NCBI RefSeq assembly: GCF_000144695.1
Contig: NC_014378.1
Span: 2,293,289-2,325,288, forward strand
Length of the DNA: 32,000 nt
Direction of reading: 5' to 3'
DNA from: Acetohalobium arabaticum DSM 5501
Lineage (GTDB): Bacteria > Bacillota > Halanaerobiia > Halobacteroidales > Acetohalobiaceae
Part shown: piece by piece, positions 12,777-28,585 of the stretch
Position numbering within the stretch: position 1 is the stretch's first letter
Layout: every line of letters begins with the position of its first letter
The notes under the pieces: generated by a model
What the model saw: the letters and a program-made list of their open reading frames with translations, nothing else
Database searches by the model: none
What the model was told of the DNA's origin: nothing
Made by a program: the position numbers and the translations under genes

Positions 12777-12851
12777 AATTGCCTCCTTCCTTCCTATTTT
12801 TAATTATTTCCATAGCAAACCGCTTATATCCTTCAACATTTTCTATAAAAT

Positions 12852-13586
12852 TCAGTGGTCTCTGATCAAATTATTATATTTTTTACCTACTTCAGAGGTT
12901 GGATTCTCAAAAACCTGTTCAGGAGGCCCTTCTTCTACTATCTTTCCGTTGTCCATTAATAGAATTCTATCAGCTACCCGATAAGCAAAATCCAGTTCAT
13001 GGGTTACAATCAGCAGTGTCCTATTCTGATTAGCAGTTATTGATTCCAACACTTCTAGAACTTCACTAACTAAAATTGGATCCAAAGAAGCAGTCGGTTC
13101 ATCCAACAGCATTAAATCAGGCTTTAAGGCCAAAGCTCTAGCAATTGCTACTCGCTGTTTCTGGCCGCCGCTTAAGTCTTGAGGATATCTATTACTGAAG
13201 TCACCGAGCTGAACCTGATTTAGACTGTCTTCAACTACCGCTTCCTTGTCTGTTAATGATAAAGTATCCTGTTTATATAAGGCTAACATAATATTATCAA
13301 AAACTGTCAGCCGATCTATTAAATTAAAATTCTGAAAAACAAAGCCGATATCCTGTCTTGCTTTTAAAAGTTCAGCCTGGTTTAACTCTAATAAATCACA
13401 GCCTTTATAGATTATCTGCCCGCCGTCAGGTTCCGTCAATCGGTTGATACAGCGAATAGTTGTTGACTTTCCACAGCCGCTAGGCCCCATAATAATAACG
13501 GTCTCTCCCTGGCTTACATCAAAATTAACGCCCTTAAGAATCTGTACTTCACCATAAGACTTATATAATTCTCTTACTTTCAACAT
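12852..13586 (-). CDS. ABC transporter ATP-binding subunit, partner of the 813-aa membrane protein; substrate unknown
   Basis: 244 aa with Walker A GPSGCGKST, Q-loop region GFVFQNFNLI, signature LSGGQKQR, Walker B LMLLDEPT and H-loop VTHE. By eye it is closest in style to the PhnC/GlnQ/FtsE-LolD group, but I cannot discriminate among them. The Shine-Dalgarno sequence is weak. Confidence 0.85.
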   Translation of the reverse strand: MLKVRELYKSYGEVQILKGVNFDVSQGETVIIMGPSGCGKSTTIRCINRLTEPDGGQIIYKGCDLLELNQAELLKARQDIGFVFQNFNLIDRLTVFDNIMLALYKQDTLSLTDKEAVVEDSLNQVQLGDFSNRYPQDLSGGQKQRVAIARALALKPDLMLLDEPTASLDPILVSEVLEVLESITANQNRTLLIVTHELDFAYRVADRILLMDNGKIVEEGPPEQVFENPTSEVGKKYNNLIRDH

Positions 13587-13625
13587 TAGCTTATCACATC
13601 ATTTCTAAATATCAAGACTAAATTA

Positions 13626-16067
13626 TTAAGCAAAGATCATCTTCCTTCTGTTCAGTATTGTTAATACTCCCGGTCTTCCCTGGGGAATGACAATCTCATG
13701 CATAATCTCAGTATAGCTTAACCCTAAAGCCTCACCGGCCAAAAATTCAGCCTCATCAAGCGGATTAATAGAGCCGGCTTTATTGGCGGCCAACATTCCA
13801 AGACTGCTGCCTATCAGAAATATATACTCCAGATTTAACAAAGGCAGTTTAGCCTGGGAGATATAGAAGATACTGCTTAATACTACTCCGCCTAAGACAA
13901 ATCCATATAGATAACTGGAGTTTAGAACCTTAATTAATCTATTGGACTCCTGTTGGTTTCTTCTCTGAATTGTAGCCATCACTAATGACTGGTCCATAAA
14001 GAGTACAAAGATAGTAAAGACTAGAGCAATCACCGCCGTTAAAACAGCCCTCACCTCTCCTAAAATTCTAAAGAACTCTCCTCTAACATTAGGCTGTAGT
14101 AGGCCAGGAGCTGTAAATAACTGCTTGATATCATACTCCTGCTGGGCAAAATAATCCTCAACCTTAGACTCCAGAGCTCCCTGATTAACACTCTGATTGA
14201 CTAAAAAATTGAGCTCTTTGCCAGGCACAACTTGACCGGCTAAATACTTATCCAGCAGCTGAATCGTTCCTGTAATCTCTTCATCCCGCAGATCAGGCAA
14301 AACATTCTGTACATGGTCTAACTCTGTAATAATCAGTTTGAAATTCAGCTGATTTAAATCCTTTACGCCGGATTCCAGGCTGCCTAATTCAGCCATTATA
14401 CCGTCTAAATCTCCTACTACCCCTTTCACAGCTCCCTTTAGTTCAGGCGAATTCAGATTCAGATCGGAACCAGCCTGCAGCAGTTGCTGTACCCTTTTTA
14501 AATTATTATTCCACTCCTCCAGCTTATTTAAAAGCGGATTATAGGAATTAATTCTGCTAATTATTCTATCCATCTCGCCATCGGTCTTCTGCTGTAGAGT
14601 CTTAACCGAATCCCGCAGATTAGTTAACCGTTCATCCTCCACGCCTACTAAAGATAAAGCAGCTACCTGTTTTTCTAAATTCCGTTCAAAACCTTTAAAG
14701 TTAGAATTAATCTCAATTAACTTTTCTCTTAACCGGTACATCTCTGCTACACTTTCTTCTAAGCTAGTAGTAACAGCAGAAATATCATTCACCGCTGCTC
14801 TTAACTGCTCTAAATCTCTACTTCCATCCGAAACTATAGAGGTTAACTTATCCTGTTGCCCGACTAATTCTTCCTGTAACCCCTGAATCTGATCGATCCC
14901 CTGCCGATATTCTGTTAACCAGTTTAAGAAATTCTGATTAACCTTTTCAGCAGTATCTACAAGCGAAGCTAATTTAGGTACTAATTCTTTAGTCTCCCCT
15001 ACTGCTTTCTGTAACAGATAACGCGGCTGTTCTATATTAGCTACTTCAAATTTCTGTTTTACTATGCCTTCCTGACTGATTAAATAAAGGCTCTGACCTC
15101 CAATCTCAGTTCCATCGCCCCGCTTGATGATTAGCTGCAGTAATCCATCCTCTCTCTGTAGCGGAGTTAACAGAATCGTTTCTGGAGTAATCTTATCCCC
15201 CACAGCTAAAGAACCATCCTCCTGGCTCGCTAAAGCAAATCTTTCTGTCGCACTAACCTTCAAATCAGCCGGAAGCTCAGCCTCAACAATGGTAGCATAC
15301 TCCATTAAGAATTTTTTCATCTGAGTCATAGTCTTAATTAAGTCATCCAAATCTCTACGCTGGCCGGAATTGAGACTCTGAATCTCCTGGGAAGAAAACT
15401 CCTTCTGTAATTTTTGACGCAAATTCAGATTTAGTTCAGTAATCTCCTCTGGTGATTGGGCAATAGGAAATCTGATCTGTAATAATCGATAGTCATCCAG
15501 AATCCCTTCAATCTGTTCCGTAGTTTCCTGCAAGTCAGCAGACTGTTTTAGAATAATATTCAACCCGGAACCGGTAGGCAGGATAAAATCAACTTCTGAT
15601 AACTTACTTATCTTTTGATTAAAAAAGTTCTTAGTATCGCCTATCATTCCCTGTAGAGAAATCTTCGGTTCAGCCATCAAAGATACATTATCGACTCCAA
15701 TTATCTCCTCAAAGTAATTATCTACCTTAGAAAAAACAGCTTTAGTACGCAGCTTATCATCCACCTGTAGAAAGTAATTAACTGTTCCTGCTACAGTAAT
15801 TCCCTTCTTTAGCTTTGAACCAGGCAGTTTCTCCTCCTTAACCTCTTTAATTTCCTTCATAGCAGAATCAGTCAGCTCCTGATTGACTGTCAATAGAAAA
15901 TCATACTTACCATAATCCCCCATTAGACTATTGACAGTATCTCCAAAATAATTATCAGCCAAATAGCCGATTCCGCTAGCTAGACTGCTGCCAACCAAAA
16001 TAACGACAATCAGCCAAATCAACAGATCAGTTCGGAATCTATATTTTAAAATCTCCACTCTTTTCAC
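13626..16067 (-). CDS. Atypical ABC membrane subunit: TM1, ~635-aa extracytoplasmic alpha/beta plus coiled-coil domain, three TMs, then a cytoplasmic tail with an EAA-like motif
   Basis: 813 aa. Predicted TMs at aa ~15-36, 672-691, 719-736 and 746-761. There is a long heptad-like helical stretch at aa ~350-620. The tail LAGEALGLSYTEIMHEIVIPQGRPG lies at nt 13668-13757. The track start is a GTG at 16067 that overlaps the AGGAG Shine-Dalgarno sequence. A GTG at 16058, 8 nt after AGGAG, is the more likely start. Confidence 0.75.
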   Translation of the reverse strand: MKRVEILKYRFRTDLLIWLIVVILVGSSLASGIGYLADNYFGDTVNSLMGDYGKYDFLLTVNQELTDSAMKEIKEVKEEKLPGSKLKKGITVAGTVNYFLQVDDKLRTKAVFSKVDNYFEEIIGVDNVSLMAEPKISLQGMIGDTKNFFNQKISKLSEVDFILPTGSGLNIILKQSADLQETTEQIEGILDDYRLLQIRFPIAQSPEEITELNLNLRQKLQKEFSSQEIQSLNSGQRRDLDDLIKTMTQMKKFLMEYATIVEAELPADLKVSATERFALASQEDGSLAVGDKITPETILLTPLQREDGLLQLIIKRGDGTEIGGQSLYLISQEGIVKQKFEVANIEQPRYLLQKAVGETKELVPKLASLVDTAEKVNQNFLNWLTEYRQGIDQIQGLQEELVGQQDKLTSIVSDGSRDLEQLRAAVNDISAVTTSLEESVAEMYRLREKLIEINSNFKGFERNLEKQVAALSLVGVEDERLTNLRDSVKTLQQKTDGEMDRIISRINSYNPLLNKLEEWNNNLKRVQQLLQAGSDLNLNSPELKGAVKGVVGDLDGIMAELGSLESGVKDLNQLNFKLIITELDHVQNVLPDLRDEEITGTIQLLDKYLAGQVVPGKELNFLVNQSVNQGALESKVEDYFAQQEYDIKQLFTAPGLLQPNVRGEFFRILGEVRAVLTAVIALVFTIFVLFMDQSLVMATIQRRNQQESNRLIKVLNSSYLYGFVLGGVVLSSIFYISQAKLPLLNLEYIFLIGSSLGMLAANKAGSINPLDEAEFLAGEALGLSYTEIMHEIVIPQGRPGVLTILNRRKMIFA

Positions 16068-16081
16068 TCCTATCCTCTGTA

Positions 16082-16110
16082 ATTATACCATCTAGAATCA
16101 AGGGCGTAAA
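16082..16110 (-). promoter_or_regulatory. Candidate sigma70 promoter with extended -10 (TTTACG-17 nt-TGgTATAAT) for the ABC pair and downstream lpx genes
   Basis: On the minus strand, -35 TTTACG is at 16110-16105, the spacer is 17 nt and ends in TGG, and -10 TATAAT is at 16087-16082. It lies about 15-25 nt upstream of the candidate start codons and downstream of the terminator at 16426-16460. Confidence 0.5.
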
Positions 16111-16173
16111 TAGAGCAAAGGAGGTAATTAATGGATTGATCAGGAAGATATTTCTTGTTTATAGTTACCTAGC

Positions 16174-16225
16174 ATAGTCGGTATAATCTCATTTATGATA
16201 TTGCAGGAATAGTCAATAGAAGTAA
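16174..16225. repeat. Cluster of degenerate element-terminus half-sites (TAGTCGGTATAATCTC, TAGTCAATAGAAG)
   Basis: 16175-16190 and 16210-16222 resemble the element 5' terminus (A)TAGTCAA(T/C)AT(A/T)(C/T)CTCT. The upstream AAGATATTTCT (16144-16154) is shared with 2286-2296. Confidence 0.5.
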
Positions 16226-16244
16226 ATATATTAGATTCCAACTA

Positions 16245-16366
16245 GTCAACATTTCTCTGCAGCGACTCTTAAAACTGACTCGGAATCATGGACGATGGAG
16301 AGTCAGTTTTTGAGAATGAGTGAGACAGGATGTCGAACGAATGGCAAGCGTAAGAGATTTGTTGAC
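16245..16366. repeat. 122-nt structured intergenic element, copy B
   Basis: Terminal inverted repeat GTCAACATTTCTCT / AGAGATTTGTTGAC (12 of 14 bp pair). Internal perfect 11-bp hairpin 16271-16281 / 16300-16310. Same length and orientation as copy A. Confidence 0.85.
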
Positions 16367-16425
16367 TATAATCTGCAATATCTTGAAAGTAACATATTAT
16401 ATAAATTAAACGTAAATTAACGTAC

Positions 16426-16460
16426 AAAAAGCAGTTTCTCACTAATTAGTGAGAAACTGC
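16426..16460 (-). terminator. Rho-independent terminator after the small OMP gene
   Basis: The minus strand reads GCAGTTTCTCAC-TAATTA-GTGAGAAACTGC (12-bp perfect stem, 6-nt loop) followed by TTTTT. It starts 16 nt after the OMP stop codon. Confidence 0.8.
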
Positions 16461-16475
16461 TTATAGCTAACTTAT

Positions 16476-17135
16476 TTAAAATTGAGTATTAAAGTTAATT
16501 CCAGCTGATAGATCAGATAAATCCTCTACAGCTAAATTAAAATTAAACTCTGAAGTTAATTTAAATTTAGCACCTACATTGAATTCCTGATCAATATACT
16601 CCATCATTAAAGTAGTTACCGGCATCTGGAGATTATTCTCTTCTTTAGTAGAGATAGTTACCGGATTAATCGTTTTGCTTATTCCAGCAAACAGCCCATC
16701 AAAGTCTCCATTACCGAGTCCCACATGGCCTCTTAAATCATAATCCAGGTTACTACTGGCTACTGCATAGAAGTCTTCATCCACCAGCCCCATCGATACA
16801 GCCGGCTGACTATTATTCTCCTCTAACAGCTGTAATTTAGCATTTAAAAATAGATCATCATCAGCTCTAACCTCATCATCATACCAGTAATTGGACAGTC
16901 CTAACTCAAAATTATCATAGGCTCCGTAATTAAATAGAACTAGATTAGCTCTATCAGTATGATGATAGCCCACTGTCGCCTTATTATAAGGTAAAACATC
17001 AGCAGTAGGGGTTTTAATTAGACCGCTAAAGCCTCCTTCAAAAGCAGTACTAGCTACAGCAGTACCACCGACAGTTAACATTAATCCGACCAGTAATGTA
17101 ATTACTAATAAATTTGCATTTTTCTTTAATTTCAT
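16476..17135 (-). CDS. Small outer-membrane beta-barrel protein of unknown function
   Basis: 219 aa with a signal peptide (…GGTAVA/STAF) and alternating amphipathic beta-strand pattern. The C-terminus is …GINFNTQF, a terminal-Phe beta-signal. The N-terminal GLIKTPTADVLP faintly recalls the GLLQMPTAR start of YjbH-like OMPs. Its Shine-Dalgarno sequence GGAGGGG lies inside the last lpxD codons, with a 5-nt gap. Confidence 0.7.
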   Translation of the reverse strand: MKLKKNANLLVITLLVGLMLTVGGTAVASTAFEGGFSGLIKTPTADVLPYNKATVGYHHTDRANLVLFNYGAYDNFELGLSNYWYDDEVRADDDLFLNAKLQLLEENNSQPAVSMGLVDEDFYAVASSNLDYDLRGHVGLGNGDFDGLFAGISKTINPVTISTKEENNLQMPVTTLMMEYIDQEFNVGAKFKLTSEFNFNLAVEDLSDLSAGINFNTQF

Positions 17136-26713: not shown

Positions 26714-28585
26714 TTATTCCTTGGTATCATCGTTATTCTCTTTGGAGTTTGATTCTACCTCTATTTCAGTATTCACTCTGCCTTCCAGAATATAATCAGT
26801 CTTAAATGTCTCCTCTGCTAACATGCCCATAGCTTCAAGGTCAGCTCCTTCAGAACCAGTCTCATTTTTGTTCTCAGCTCTATTTTCATCATTGTTCTGA
26901 TTAACCGGTACTGCTTTATGATTATTATAACTGGGATAAATTCTAACTACTAAATCGCTGTTAATCTTCTGTTCTTTAAAAGCAGTTATTACTTCTTCTA
27001 AGTTTCTGAAGGTTTCATTCTTGCCATAACCATACTTCTTCTCCTCTGGTTTAGCCTCCTGCTGTTGTTCAGCAGTAAAGTTTGCTTCTAAGCCGCCGAC
27101 TAATTCCATACTGGCTATACCTGATTCTATATCTTCAGGCAGAGTAAAACTATAATTTTTAACCAGTACTTCTTCACGATAAGGCTGGAATGTAACTTCT
27201 AACTCTACTTCTTTGCCTGGTTCAAGTTTATCAGTTAATACATTAAGTTCTCTAATTAAAGCAACCTGAGGCTTTTCTTTGATATCTACATCTAAATTTA
27301 TATCGATCAGATTTATCTTCTGGAATGGATTCTGGGTAATCAACATTAATGCTTGAGAAAAGTCCCTTAATGCTACTGAAGCTACATCTCTGCGGCTATA
27401 GAAAATATTCTTCCGCTCGATAATCTTTTCTTCTAAATTATTAGCCATAATTTCCATTTCTACTTCAGCAGTACCGCCGCCGCGACGGTCAATAGTACTA
27501 TTAATTGCCTGATAAATAACTGAACTGGCCAGTGATTGGAAGAGTTCCTCATTCCTAATTATTTGAGCATTGATCTTCTGCTCTTTATTTAAATCTCTAT
27601 CTGTAACGTCTACCTCTAGAGGTACAACTTTAGGTGATTGGCCTATTCTGCCTCCTACCCCTGCTGACCGATCCTGAGTTATAATTCCTTTTGAATTTAG
27701 TGGGCTACCCAGCTTAAAAGGCATCTTCATACTCTTAATCATATGATGAATATAGGCCGAAGAAAGGAAGTAATTACTATCACCTAAGCCCATAAACTGG
27801 TGTCCAAAACCTAAAACTCTATCTCCTTCTCTATAAGTTAAAGTTCCAACTGCTGAAATATCAACATCTCCTCTAGCCAACTGTACTGCAATTGCGCTTC
27901 CCGGAACTAATTTATCCTCTTTTCCTTTCGACATGTCTGCTGCAGCTGTACTCTGCACCGGCTTTAAATCATAAGCAGATAACTCTTCACTCAAGTAATC
28001 TACAGCCTCTTTATCCAAACCGCTAACCAGCAGCGGAGTCTTTACTGGATAAGCAGTTAAAGAATTATCTTGTTTGACACTGGACTTATCTTCTACAAAA
28101 GATACCTGCTCCACTGATTTCCCGTTTATTTTTATCGGCTCTGATAAACCAGCAGTCGTGCCTTCTTCAATCTCATCCAACTGCCACAGATCAAGCATAT
28201 CCTCAATCGGTGTTACCATACCTACCTTATGCTCAGTCAACTGCCAACCGTAACCAATTGCTCCAATCAACTTTCCATCAATATAAATTGGACTGCCACT
28301 CATACCAGCTGCAATTCCGCCTGTTTTATCAATTACATCTCCACTAACCTCAATCAAAATTAAATCGCGATTAACTCCCTGCTTTTTCAAAACTCCCAAA
28401 ACTTCTACGTTAAATTCTTCTACTTCTGTACCCGAAATTACCGTCTTGCCAACTCCGGACATTCCTGTTTCAATCTTATTTACCGGCAGAATCTCCCGTG
28501 GCCCAGAATCATCCACAGCCATTACCGGTGTAAATAATAAAACACAGAATGCTATCACTAACATCAGACTACCGTACTTGCGCAC
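26714..28585 (-). CDS. Secreted serine peptidase with an S55 (SpoIVB-like) catalytic domain and a long uncharacterised C-terminal region
   Basis: 623 aa with GTG start and a signal peptide. The GIAAGMSGSPIYIDGKLIGAIGYG motif matches the SpoIVB/S55 serine motif (GxSGSP). About 450 further aa lack motifs I recognise, ending in an acidic, Asn-rich tail. Confidence 0.6.
   Translation of the reverse strand: MRKYGSLMLVIAFCVLLFTPVMAVDDSGPREILPVNKIETGMSGVGKTVISGTEVEEFNVEVLGVLKKQGVNRDLILIEVSGDVIDKTGGIAAGMSGSPIYIDGKLIGAIGYGWQLTEHKVGMVTPIEDMLDLWQLDEIEEGTTAGLSEPIKINGKSVEQVSFVEDKSSVKQDNSLTAYPVKTPLLVSGLDKEAVDYLSEELSAYDLKPVQSTAAADMSKGKEDKLVPGSAIAVQLARGDVDISAVGTLTYREGDRVLGFGHQFMGLGDSNYFLSSAYIHHMIKSMKMPFKLGSPLNSKGIITQDRSAGVGGRIGQSPKVVPLEVDVTDRDLNKEQKINAQIIRNEELFQSLASSVIYQAINSTIDRRGGGTAEVEMEIMANNLEEKIIERKNIFYSRRDVASVALRDFSQALMLITQNPFQKINLIDINLDVDIKEKPQVALIRELNVLTDKLEPGKEVELEVTFQPYREEVLVKNYSFTLPEDIESGIASMELVGGLEANFTAEQQQEAKPEEKKYGYGKNETFRNLEEVITAFKEQKINSDLVVRIYPSYNNHKAVPVNQNNDENRAENKNETGSEGADLEAMGMLAEETFKTDYILEGRVNTEIEVESNSKENNDDTKE

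Follow-up and report, generated by a model that had tools for sequence, protein, structure and literature searches.

The lipid A gene cluster of Acetohalobium arabaticum (Halanaerobiales) raises the question of why an ATP-binding cassette (ABC) ATPase and a large membrane protein, carried in databases as a 'hypothetical protein', are encoded immediately ahead of lpxC, and what the two proteins do there. The pair lies in a stretch of 32,000 nucleotides (nt) of strain DSM 5501 (contig NC_014378.1, positions 2,293,289 to 2,325,288), to which we refer as the window and in which the two genes are placed as follows.

13626..16058, minus strand: membrane subunit gene, 810 amino acids (aa); start GTG at 16058, the longest open reading frame (ORF; 813 aa) running from 16067.
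12852..13586, minus strand: ABC ATPase gene, 244 aa, 39 nt from the membrane-protein ORF.

On one side the pair is flanked by lpxD and a gene for a 219-aa protein resembling an outer-membrane protein (OMP), and on the other by lpxC, fabZ, lpxA, lpxI, lpxB and msbA. The pair is a conserved, undescribed ABC system of diderm Bacillota that bear lipopolysaccharide (LPS), and on balance we lean toward the view that it carries out ATP-driven mechanotransmission or extraction in the envelope, in the service of lipid A and LPS biogenesis or its control. The original prediction, which a model made from the sequence of the window alone, had the 813- and 244-aa ORFs, the 39-nt gap and the flanking lpxD-OMP and lpxC genes right. 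Its start at 16067 gives way to GTG 16058, and hence to a protein of 810 aa, because the sequence AGGAG abuts GTG 16067 directly and lies 8 nt upstream of GTG 16058, because the latter aligns with ATG/GTG starts in relatives, and because the NCBI annotation also has 810 aa.

No Pfam or NCBIfam family covers the 810-aa protein, and the database entry to which the 813-aa ORF is 100% identical is named 'hypothetical protein'; the proposal of an undescribed system is supported. Word-index homolog searches yielded 7 and 10 matches, and 0 for the C-terminal module; it was an exhaustive HMMER search of 1.84 billion representative proteins, with a profile from seven close homologs, that revealed the family. 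Its members are about 600-970 aa long and fall into 186 clusters at 50% identity, of which 110 have E < 1e-30. Scanning one genome for each GTDB species, we confirmed 99 loci, kept 80 of them and labelled their ORFs by BLAST against the window proteins. The ATPase gene directly follows the big gene in 79 of these 80, lpxC comes after the ATPase gene in 69 of 76 informative loci, and the full order lpxC-fabZ-lpxA-lpxI is found in 61. Among the seven exceptional loci, four have lpxB or a gene for an LptB-like ATPase after the pair, and three are additional copies in Pelosinus, whose genomes carry the canonical one as well. Carriers include Halothermothrix, Halonatronum, Selenihalanaerobacter, Fuchsiella, Sporomusa, Pelosinus and Dendrosporobacter as well as many uncultured Bacillota with a guanine-plus-cytosine (GC) content from 32% to 67%; a metagenome scan added two loci, one of them informative, a 71% GC contig with the same gene order and a big protein 27% identical to that of the window. 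In some metagenome-assembled genomes (MAGs) the pair stands between msbA-lpxB and lpxC. Except for the three second copies in Pelosinus and a few contigs that end too early, every recovered locus has lpx genes, and no recognised monoderm genome was among the recovered loci. The pair is a conserved core of the lpxC operon, of which it forms the first two genes, across lineages ranging from 32% to 71% GC. Its link to the lpx genes, proposed from the window, is thus very strongly conserved, and the idea that it had been 'inserted' into the lipid A operon does not fit an order kept across divergent lineages in 69 of 76 informative loci. The original prediction had also named three outcomes that would speak against it: homology to an unrelated family together with presence in monoderms, a cytoplasmic location of the large domain, and an unconserved neighbourhood. 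We looked for all three and found none.

Some of these loci deserve comment in their own right. In one of the exceptions (L025), Pfam confirmed a DUF3084 gene after that for the LptB-like ATPase; DUF3084 corresponds to COG4372, annotated as 'hypothetical' and flagged as a diderm marker by Antunes et al. (PMC5007114). Many MAG loci, L045 for example, apparently have the same LptB-like ATPase, there after lpxI. After the second Pelosinus copy at L046 come genes for radical-SAM, flavin-reductase, 3D-domain and Amidase_2 (peptidoglycan hydrolase) proteins. Three MAGs labelled Bacteroidota, Patescibacteria and Syntrophothermus (L038, L039, L007) carry a Firmicute-type cluster of big gene, ATPase gene and lpxC; all come from one study, and errors of binning or labelling are likely. 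Syntrophothermus is listed by Antunes et al. as lacking lpxA-D (PMC5007114), and its name on a MAG that carries the pair is doubtful. The pair is not discussed in the main text of PMC5007114 or PMC13018214, nor does the table of the former list as markers the three A. arabaticum genes that separate lpxC from lpxD.

What kind of ABC system the pair forms can be approached from the ATPase, whose motifs are intact: GPSGCGKS at residue 34, the Q-loop, LSGGQ at 138, LMLLDE at 158-163 with the catalytic Glu, and H196 (E = 7e-39 against PF00005). Profile scores place it nearest to GlnQ (238.6 bits), ahead of ProV (224), TcyN (223), DevA (193.5) and FtsE (171.8), and its identity is 42% to GlnQ and HisP, 40% to MetN and ArtP, and 35% to FtsE and LolD, which BLAST ranked last among the seven Escherichia coli ATPases compared. 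By these sequence comparisons the ATPase belongs to the GlnQ/MetN-type importer class and stands outside the FtsE/LolD-like group.

The membrane subunit has four hydrophobic segments (aa 15-33, 672-690, 718-736 and 743-761 in 813-aa numbering), which AlphaFold shows as helices, and basic residues cluster on the segments inferred to be cytoplasmic, including the N-terminus. The first transmembrane (TM) segment has the following position.

15960..16025, minus strand: TM1 (aa 12-33 in 810-aa numbering), preceded by a cytoplasmic, basic N-terminus.

Three family members (P0139, P0147 and P0151; 932-967 aa) are natural fusions with the ATPase at the C-terminus of the membrane protein. Their amino-acid composition is typical of high-GC genomes, and the about 90-110 residues from the EAA motif, a coupling element discussed below, to Walker A hold no TM segment. 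Such single-chain fusions show that both proteins work together; they also place the C-terminus in the cytoplasm, so that, with three TM helices in between, the region of ~620 aa after TM1 must lie outside it. Hydropathy, the AlphaFold helices and the fusion-based topology agree on the four TM segments and the large extracytoplasmic domain that had been predicted.

The C-terminal module of the membrane subunit consists of the remaining TM helices and the tail.

13782..14054, minus strand: TM2, TM3 and TM4 (aa 669-759), from hydropathy, AlphaFold and weak Pfam matches.
13641..13763, minus strand: EAA-type coupling loop and tail on the cytoplasmic side (aa 766-806), with which the protein stops; no TM comes after it.

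When the module was compared by hhalign with E. coli K-12 proteins as reference sequences, the type I importer permeases MetI, GlnP, ArtQ, ArtM, HisQ, HisM, PotB and PotC were matched with 94.5% probability (E = 7e-8), in an alignment that sets NKAGSINPLDEAEFLAGEALGLSYTEIMHEIVIPQGRPG against the MetI EAA loop. When the C-terminal profile was compared with PDB sequences, the five best hits were to an Art-type amino-acid permease, PotC and MetI, likewise all aligned at the EAA loop. BPD_transp_1 is the sole Pfam family to recur across members (18 of 27 C-terminal modules and 14 of 33 full-length proteins), the 810-aa window protein reaching 12.7-16.4 bits, and these weak, sub-threshold matches put TM2-4 in register with the first three type I core helices, at about positions 20-114 of the model. 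Of the long segments of the family, the tail is the best conserved (0.64). The protein ends ~35 residues past the EAA motif, and no hydrophobic segment follows the motif. We conclude from the profile and sequence alignments that the tail is an EAA coupling loop homologous to that of type I importer permeases, and that the protein has the equivalent of the first three type I core helices and the coupling loop but lacks the last two helices. The resemblance of the tail to the EAA-x3-G-x9-I-x-LP loop had been noticed in the original prediction, which placed the peptide at nt 13668-13757; it maps to 13668-13742.

The periplasmic region was modelled by AlphaFold from a 33-sequence alignment, which gave a mean predicted local distance difference test (pLDDT) score of 80.9 and a predicted template-modelling score (pTM) of 0.48; a 7-sequence alignment gave a pLDDT of 49 and was unusable. 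The elements of the model, in 810-aa numbering, are as follows.

aa 7-46: helix that contains TM1, with a short extension beyond the membrane.
15471..15899, minus strand: two tandem ferredoxin-like beta-alpha-beta-beta-alpha-beta domains (aa 54-127 and 132-196), pLDDT about 90.
aa 203-254: linker helices.
15030..15290, minus strand: seven-strand beta domain (aa 257-343).
14235..15026, minus strand: helical region (aa 345-608), the two longest helices of 63 and 58 residues, shorter ones after them.
14094..14216, minus strand: juxtamembrane beta-alpha-beta-beta unit (aa 615-655), which comes after a conserved LPxLxDEEI motif and continues into the TM2 helix.
aa 658-701: helix that contains TM2, followed by TM3 at 715-734 and TM4 at 743-759.
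aa 769-793: two short EAA helices.

A conserved GDYGEYD motif precedes the ferredoxin-like domains. The ~620-aa external region is thus predicted to comprise about 290 aa of alpha/beta domains, about 264 aa of helix and the juxtamembrane unit of about 40 aa, which alters the earlier picture of a ~635-aa extracytoplasmic coiled-coil stalk: the region is outside the cytoplasm and ~264 aa of it are helical, but ~290 aa are alpha/beta and the total is ~620 aa. Nor is the stalk likely to span the periplasm, as had been suggested. The helical region is the least conserved part of the protein, and in length it ranges between 90 and 283 aa among members, in two size classes, which does not fit a stalk of fixed, periplasm-spanning length. 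The Foldseek matches listed are to helical objects (designed helical bundles, ClyA/AhlC/NheA-type toxins and SMC arms), none of them significant, with RND pumps and SecDF appearing only at a probability of 0.13 or less. As for the Porter and Sabre subdomains of type VII proteins (MacB_PCD), Pfam gave no match, and the model has ferredoxin-like beta-alpha-beta units. Searches of Pfam and NCBIfam found none of the LptF/G, MlaE/MCE, Wzz/PCP or HlyD-type adaptor families, apart from one weak MCE coiled-coil match (E = 0.03). We set aside MCE/LetB/PqiB, Wzz/PCP, HlyD-type adaptors, YhgE/Pip, LptF/G and SMC/Rad50 as relatives, the comparisons giving no profile matches or coiled-coil noise. The earlier statement that the protein is not LptF/G, MlaE, MsbA or LolC/E agrees with the lack of profile similarity to any of them.

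How the pair is transcribed bears on its relation to lpxC. The following elements lie upstream of the big gene and between the ATPase gene and lpxC.

16421..16462, minus strand: intrinsic terminator that ends the upstream unit of lpxD and the small OMP gene; stem 16429-16462 and T-tract.
16124..16134, minus strand: CCATTAATTAC box just upstream of the -35 element, conserved in all three genomes compared.
16082..16110, minus strand: promoter TTTACG-17-TGgTATAAT (extended -10), the best-scoring promoter-like site in the region.
16067..16071, minus strand: ribosome-binding site AGGAG, 8 nt upstream of GTG 16058 and conserved as GATAGGAGTGA.
12777..12851, minus strand: spacer from the ATPase gene to lpxC, with 84% column identity across three genomes.

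The terminator stem at 16429-16462 has a folding free energy (dG) of -24.1 kcal/mol (z = -7.8). The same arrangement of terminator, promoter and ribosome-binding site is found 5' of the big gene in Selenihalanaerobacter and in a Bacillota MAG, making three genomes with the window, and the non-coding upstream alignment of the three is 83% identical where the proteins are only 50-57% identical. Judged from this sequence conservation, a conserved sigma-70-type promoter drives the pair-lpxC operon in Halobacteroidaceae, and in the window the promoter at 16082-16110 probably drives the whole operon, from the big gene and the ATPase gene through lpxC, fabZ, lpxA, lpxI and lpxB to msbA. No terminator-like site was predicted between the ATPase gene and lpxC, in agreement with the unpunctuated run into lpxC seen in the original prediction, whose terminator, repeat element and promoter 5' of the pair are all present, the promoter being backed by conservation in relatives. 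The CCATTAATTAC box could be an UP element or an operator or other regulator site. An Rfam search of the region gave no match. The repeat element is palindromic and dispersed, of the kind of a miniature inverted-repeat transposable element or repetitive extragenic palindrome; it lies at ~16192-16387 and has a second copy, 75-82% identical, at ~2430-2575. Both copies are in intergenic gaps, and the repeat folds as a long hairpin (z = -4.3). The repeat accounts for the greater distance between the OMP gene and the big gene, 408 nt here against 127-139 nt in relatives. The spacer at 12777-12851 also holds GGATA-15-GGAAATAAT, a motif with a single occurrence in the window (chance expectation 0.09), which we take to resemble a forespore sigma-F-type promoter. 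We discarded this candidate, the position of the motif not being conserved beyond the closest relatives.

Taken as a whole, the architecture fits no described ABC class. The pair probably uses ATP for work in the cell envelope, and import is unlikely because two helices of the type I pathway are missing and no binding-protein gene lies nearby. In the explanation that we favor, the membrane subunit would form a dimer with two ATPases, and ATP binding and hydrolysis would close the ATPase dimer. This closure would move the EAA helices and TM2-4, and with them the periplasmic domains. The outcome may be mechanotransmission, or a lipidic molecule may be drawn out of the inner membrane at its outer face; a type VII-like working mode would then have been reached from a type I ancestor. 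A role in lipid A/LPS biogenesis or its control is suggested by the conserved neighbourhood. A bolder version, to which we give noticeably less credence and which we put forward tentatively, is that the pair represents both a new ABC architectural class, with half a type I core as force transmitter, and an unrecognised ancestral lipid A/LPS component of diderm Firmicutes; it might, for example, extract or pass on a lipid A-related molecule on the outer side of the inner membrane, or link periplasmic LPS status to LpxC.

As for the molecules on which the pair could act, it resembles LptB2FGC and MsbA in being driven by an ABC ATPase and encoded in the same gene cluster, from which a part in LPS-related lipid handling can only be inferred. 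The 810-aa protein has no similarity to the membrane domains of LptF/G or MsbA, and MsbA and LptC are encoded separately from the pair within the window. LptB and LptF/G have been reported for the A. arabaticum genome (PMC5007114). For diderm Firmicutes, PMC13018214 reports an LptD homolog of 16 strands, so the LPS translocon is not a gap for the pair to fill. The original prediction noted that diderm Firmicutes are reported to lack Lol. This holds for Negativicutes, whereas LolA and a LolCDE cluster are present in Halanaerobiales (PMC5007114).

Several observations weigh against the explanation that we favor. The hhalign match to type I permeases spans just 52 columns, and the BPD_transp_1 matches are all below the gathering threshold of 26.4 bits, with a best E-value of 3.5e-4. 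Foldseek of the model against PDB gave no match at E <= 1e-3. A conserved neighbourhood is a functional link that does not say which function, and the second Pelosinus copies of the big gene and ATPase gene (L046, L054 and L035) lie away from lpx genes. Moreover, the pair is patchily distributed. We judged its presence from gaps between the lpxC and lpxD accession numbers in the supplementary table of Antunes et al. (PMC5007114), with sequence verification for the genera Sporomusa, Pelosinus and Halothermothrix. By this count, 3 genes lie between lpxC and lpxD in Acetohalobium, 4 in Sporomusa, Pelosinus, Acetonema and Thermosinus, and 6-11 in Halothermothrix, Halobacteroides and Orenia; there are 1-2 in Veillonella, Selenomonas ruminantium, Megamonas, Mitsuokella, Phascolarctobacterium, Succinispira, Anaeromusa and Acidaminococcus, and 0 in three genomes of Halanaerobium. 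From these gaps the pair is apparently absent from Halanaerobium, Veillonella, Selenomonas, Acidaminococcus and others, and the gene counts indicate that it was probably lost from several diderm lineages. It is therefore not a universally required step of LPS biogenesis, and its loss argues for an accessory or regulatory rather than a core role.

A regulatory role in the strict sense is the first of the alternatives to be weighed. The periplasmic domain might monitor the state of LPS or the envelope, and the ATPase cycle might relay it to LpxC or the lipid A pathway. In E. coli, LpxC is controlled by YejM(PbgA/LapC)-LapB-FtsH, and a shared role in tying envelope or LPS status to LpxC is conceivable for the pair from its adjacency to lpxC alone. 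That adjacency is near-universal, with the pair immediately upstream of the gene for the committed step, and the spacer between the ATPase gene and lpxC is strongly conserved; a system without a complete translocation pathway that several diderm lineages can dispense with, as is often true of regulators, would also suit such a role. The 244-aa ATPase, in contrast, has no extra output domain, and similarity to YejM, LapB or signalling domains was not found in Pfam or NCBIfam. The pair is not homologous to the YejM-LapB-FtsH system, whose protein types are entirely different, and the argument for a sensor comes from gene position. We regard it as unlikely, if still the strongest of the alternatives.

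Less probable again is that the pair is a true, divergent member of the type VII systems (MacB, LolCDE, FtsEX, YbbAP-TesA), with the C-terminal motif a convergent 'minor coupling helix'. The likeness is one of topology: a cytoplasmic N-terminus, TM1, a large periplasmic domain between TM1 and TM2, TM2-4 and a cytoplasmic C-terminus, four TM segments in all. The TM1 and TM2 helices reach somewhat past the membrane, and beta-alpha-beta units flank the periplasmic region. The expectation of envelope mechanotransmission or extraction rather than transmembrane transport is shared as well; type VII systems carry out envelope tasks, lipid extraction among them (PMC12646458). Homology was not detected, however. 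The C-terminal module matched LolC, LolE and FtsX with an hhalign probability of 13.7%, compared with the 94.5% at which the tail matches the type I EAA loop, and no FtsX (PF02687) or MacB_PCD match was found in the 27 C-terminal modules or 33 full-length members. The coupling element is the C-terminal EAA loop and not the TM2-TM3 helix; the TM2-TM3 loop, which is the site of the major coupling helix in type VII systems and in which an FtsX/MacB-like helix had been suspected, is poorly conserved (0.33) and variable in length. In addition, the ATPase is of another group, nearer the importer ATPases, and the periplasmic domains are different and much larger. The earlier suggestion of a mechanotransmission-type, type VII-like ABC pair thus stands for the four-TM topology but is not supported for homology.

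Only slightly behind, and also improbable, is a role in sporulation or germination, in which the pair would help endospore-forming diderm Firmicutes to convert the spore membrane, derived from the inner membrane, into an outer membrane with LPS. By the accession gaps, the pair is present in Sporomusa, Pelosinus, Acetonema and Thermosinus and not in Veillonella, Selenomonas, Acidaminococcus or Halanaerobium, and PMC13018214 reports that Acetonema upregulates LPS genes when it sporulates. Against this, the correlation is a coarse one that genome reduction in host-associated lineages confounds, and the promoter looks sigma-70-like, with no sporulation-specific element established. Acetohalobium, Selenihalanaerobacter and Thermosinus are not known as spore formers.

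The pair shares with type I permeases (MetI, GlnP, HisQM, ArtQM, PotBC) the EAA loop, the register of TM2-4 and a GlnQ/MetN-class ATPase, but it differs by the two missing C-terminal helices and the ~620-aa periplasmic region after TM1. The type I core has at least five TM helices, two of them past the EAA loop, which the 810-aa protein lacks. No gene for a substrate-binding protein was found beside the pair in the window or the 80 loci, nor such a domain in the 810-aa protein, and type I permeases serve nutrient uptake where the genomic context of the pair is lipid A synthesis. A conventional importer that obtains its missing helices or binding protein from another gene, or the decaying remnant of one, is accordingly very improbable despite the type I-like EAA loop and GlnQ-like ATPase, since neither a small membrane-protein gene nor one for a binding protein is kept next to the pair in the window and the 80 loci, the single-chain fusions add no TM helices, and decay is excluded by conservation over 186 clusters and by the intact catalytic motifs.

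Two neighbours in the window call for mention. The 219-aa signal-peptide protein (16476-17135, minus strand) has a weak match to the YjbH family, at 29.8 bits just over the Pfam cut-off, and is probably a small beta-barrel OMP; its YjbH-like gene adjoins lpxD in both Halobacteroidaceae and Sporomusaceae. We considered it as an obligate partner of the pair and rejected it: a terminator stands between them here, an lpxL-like gene stands between them in Negativicutes, and in many MAG lineages it is not upstream at all. Farther away, a 623-aa ORF with a SpoIVB-type peptidase S55 domain (26714-28585, minus strand) lies between flagellar P/L-ring genes and tamB, inside an outer-membrane gene cluster.

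No described class unites a coupling loop and an ATPase of type I with a four-helix topology resembling type VII, and this combination suggests more than one origin for mechanotransmission as a mode of action. How the outer membrane is built outside Proteobacteria is an open question, and the diderm Firmicutes are central to the debate on its gain or loss. In these bacteria the pair has remained at the start of the lpxC operon in lineages that have diverged widely, and it offers a concrete target for study in the tractable Sporomusaceae.

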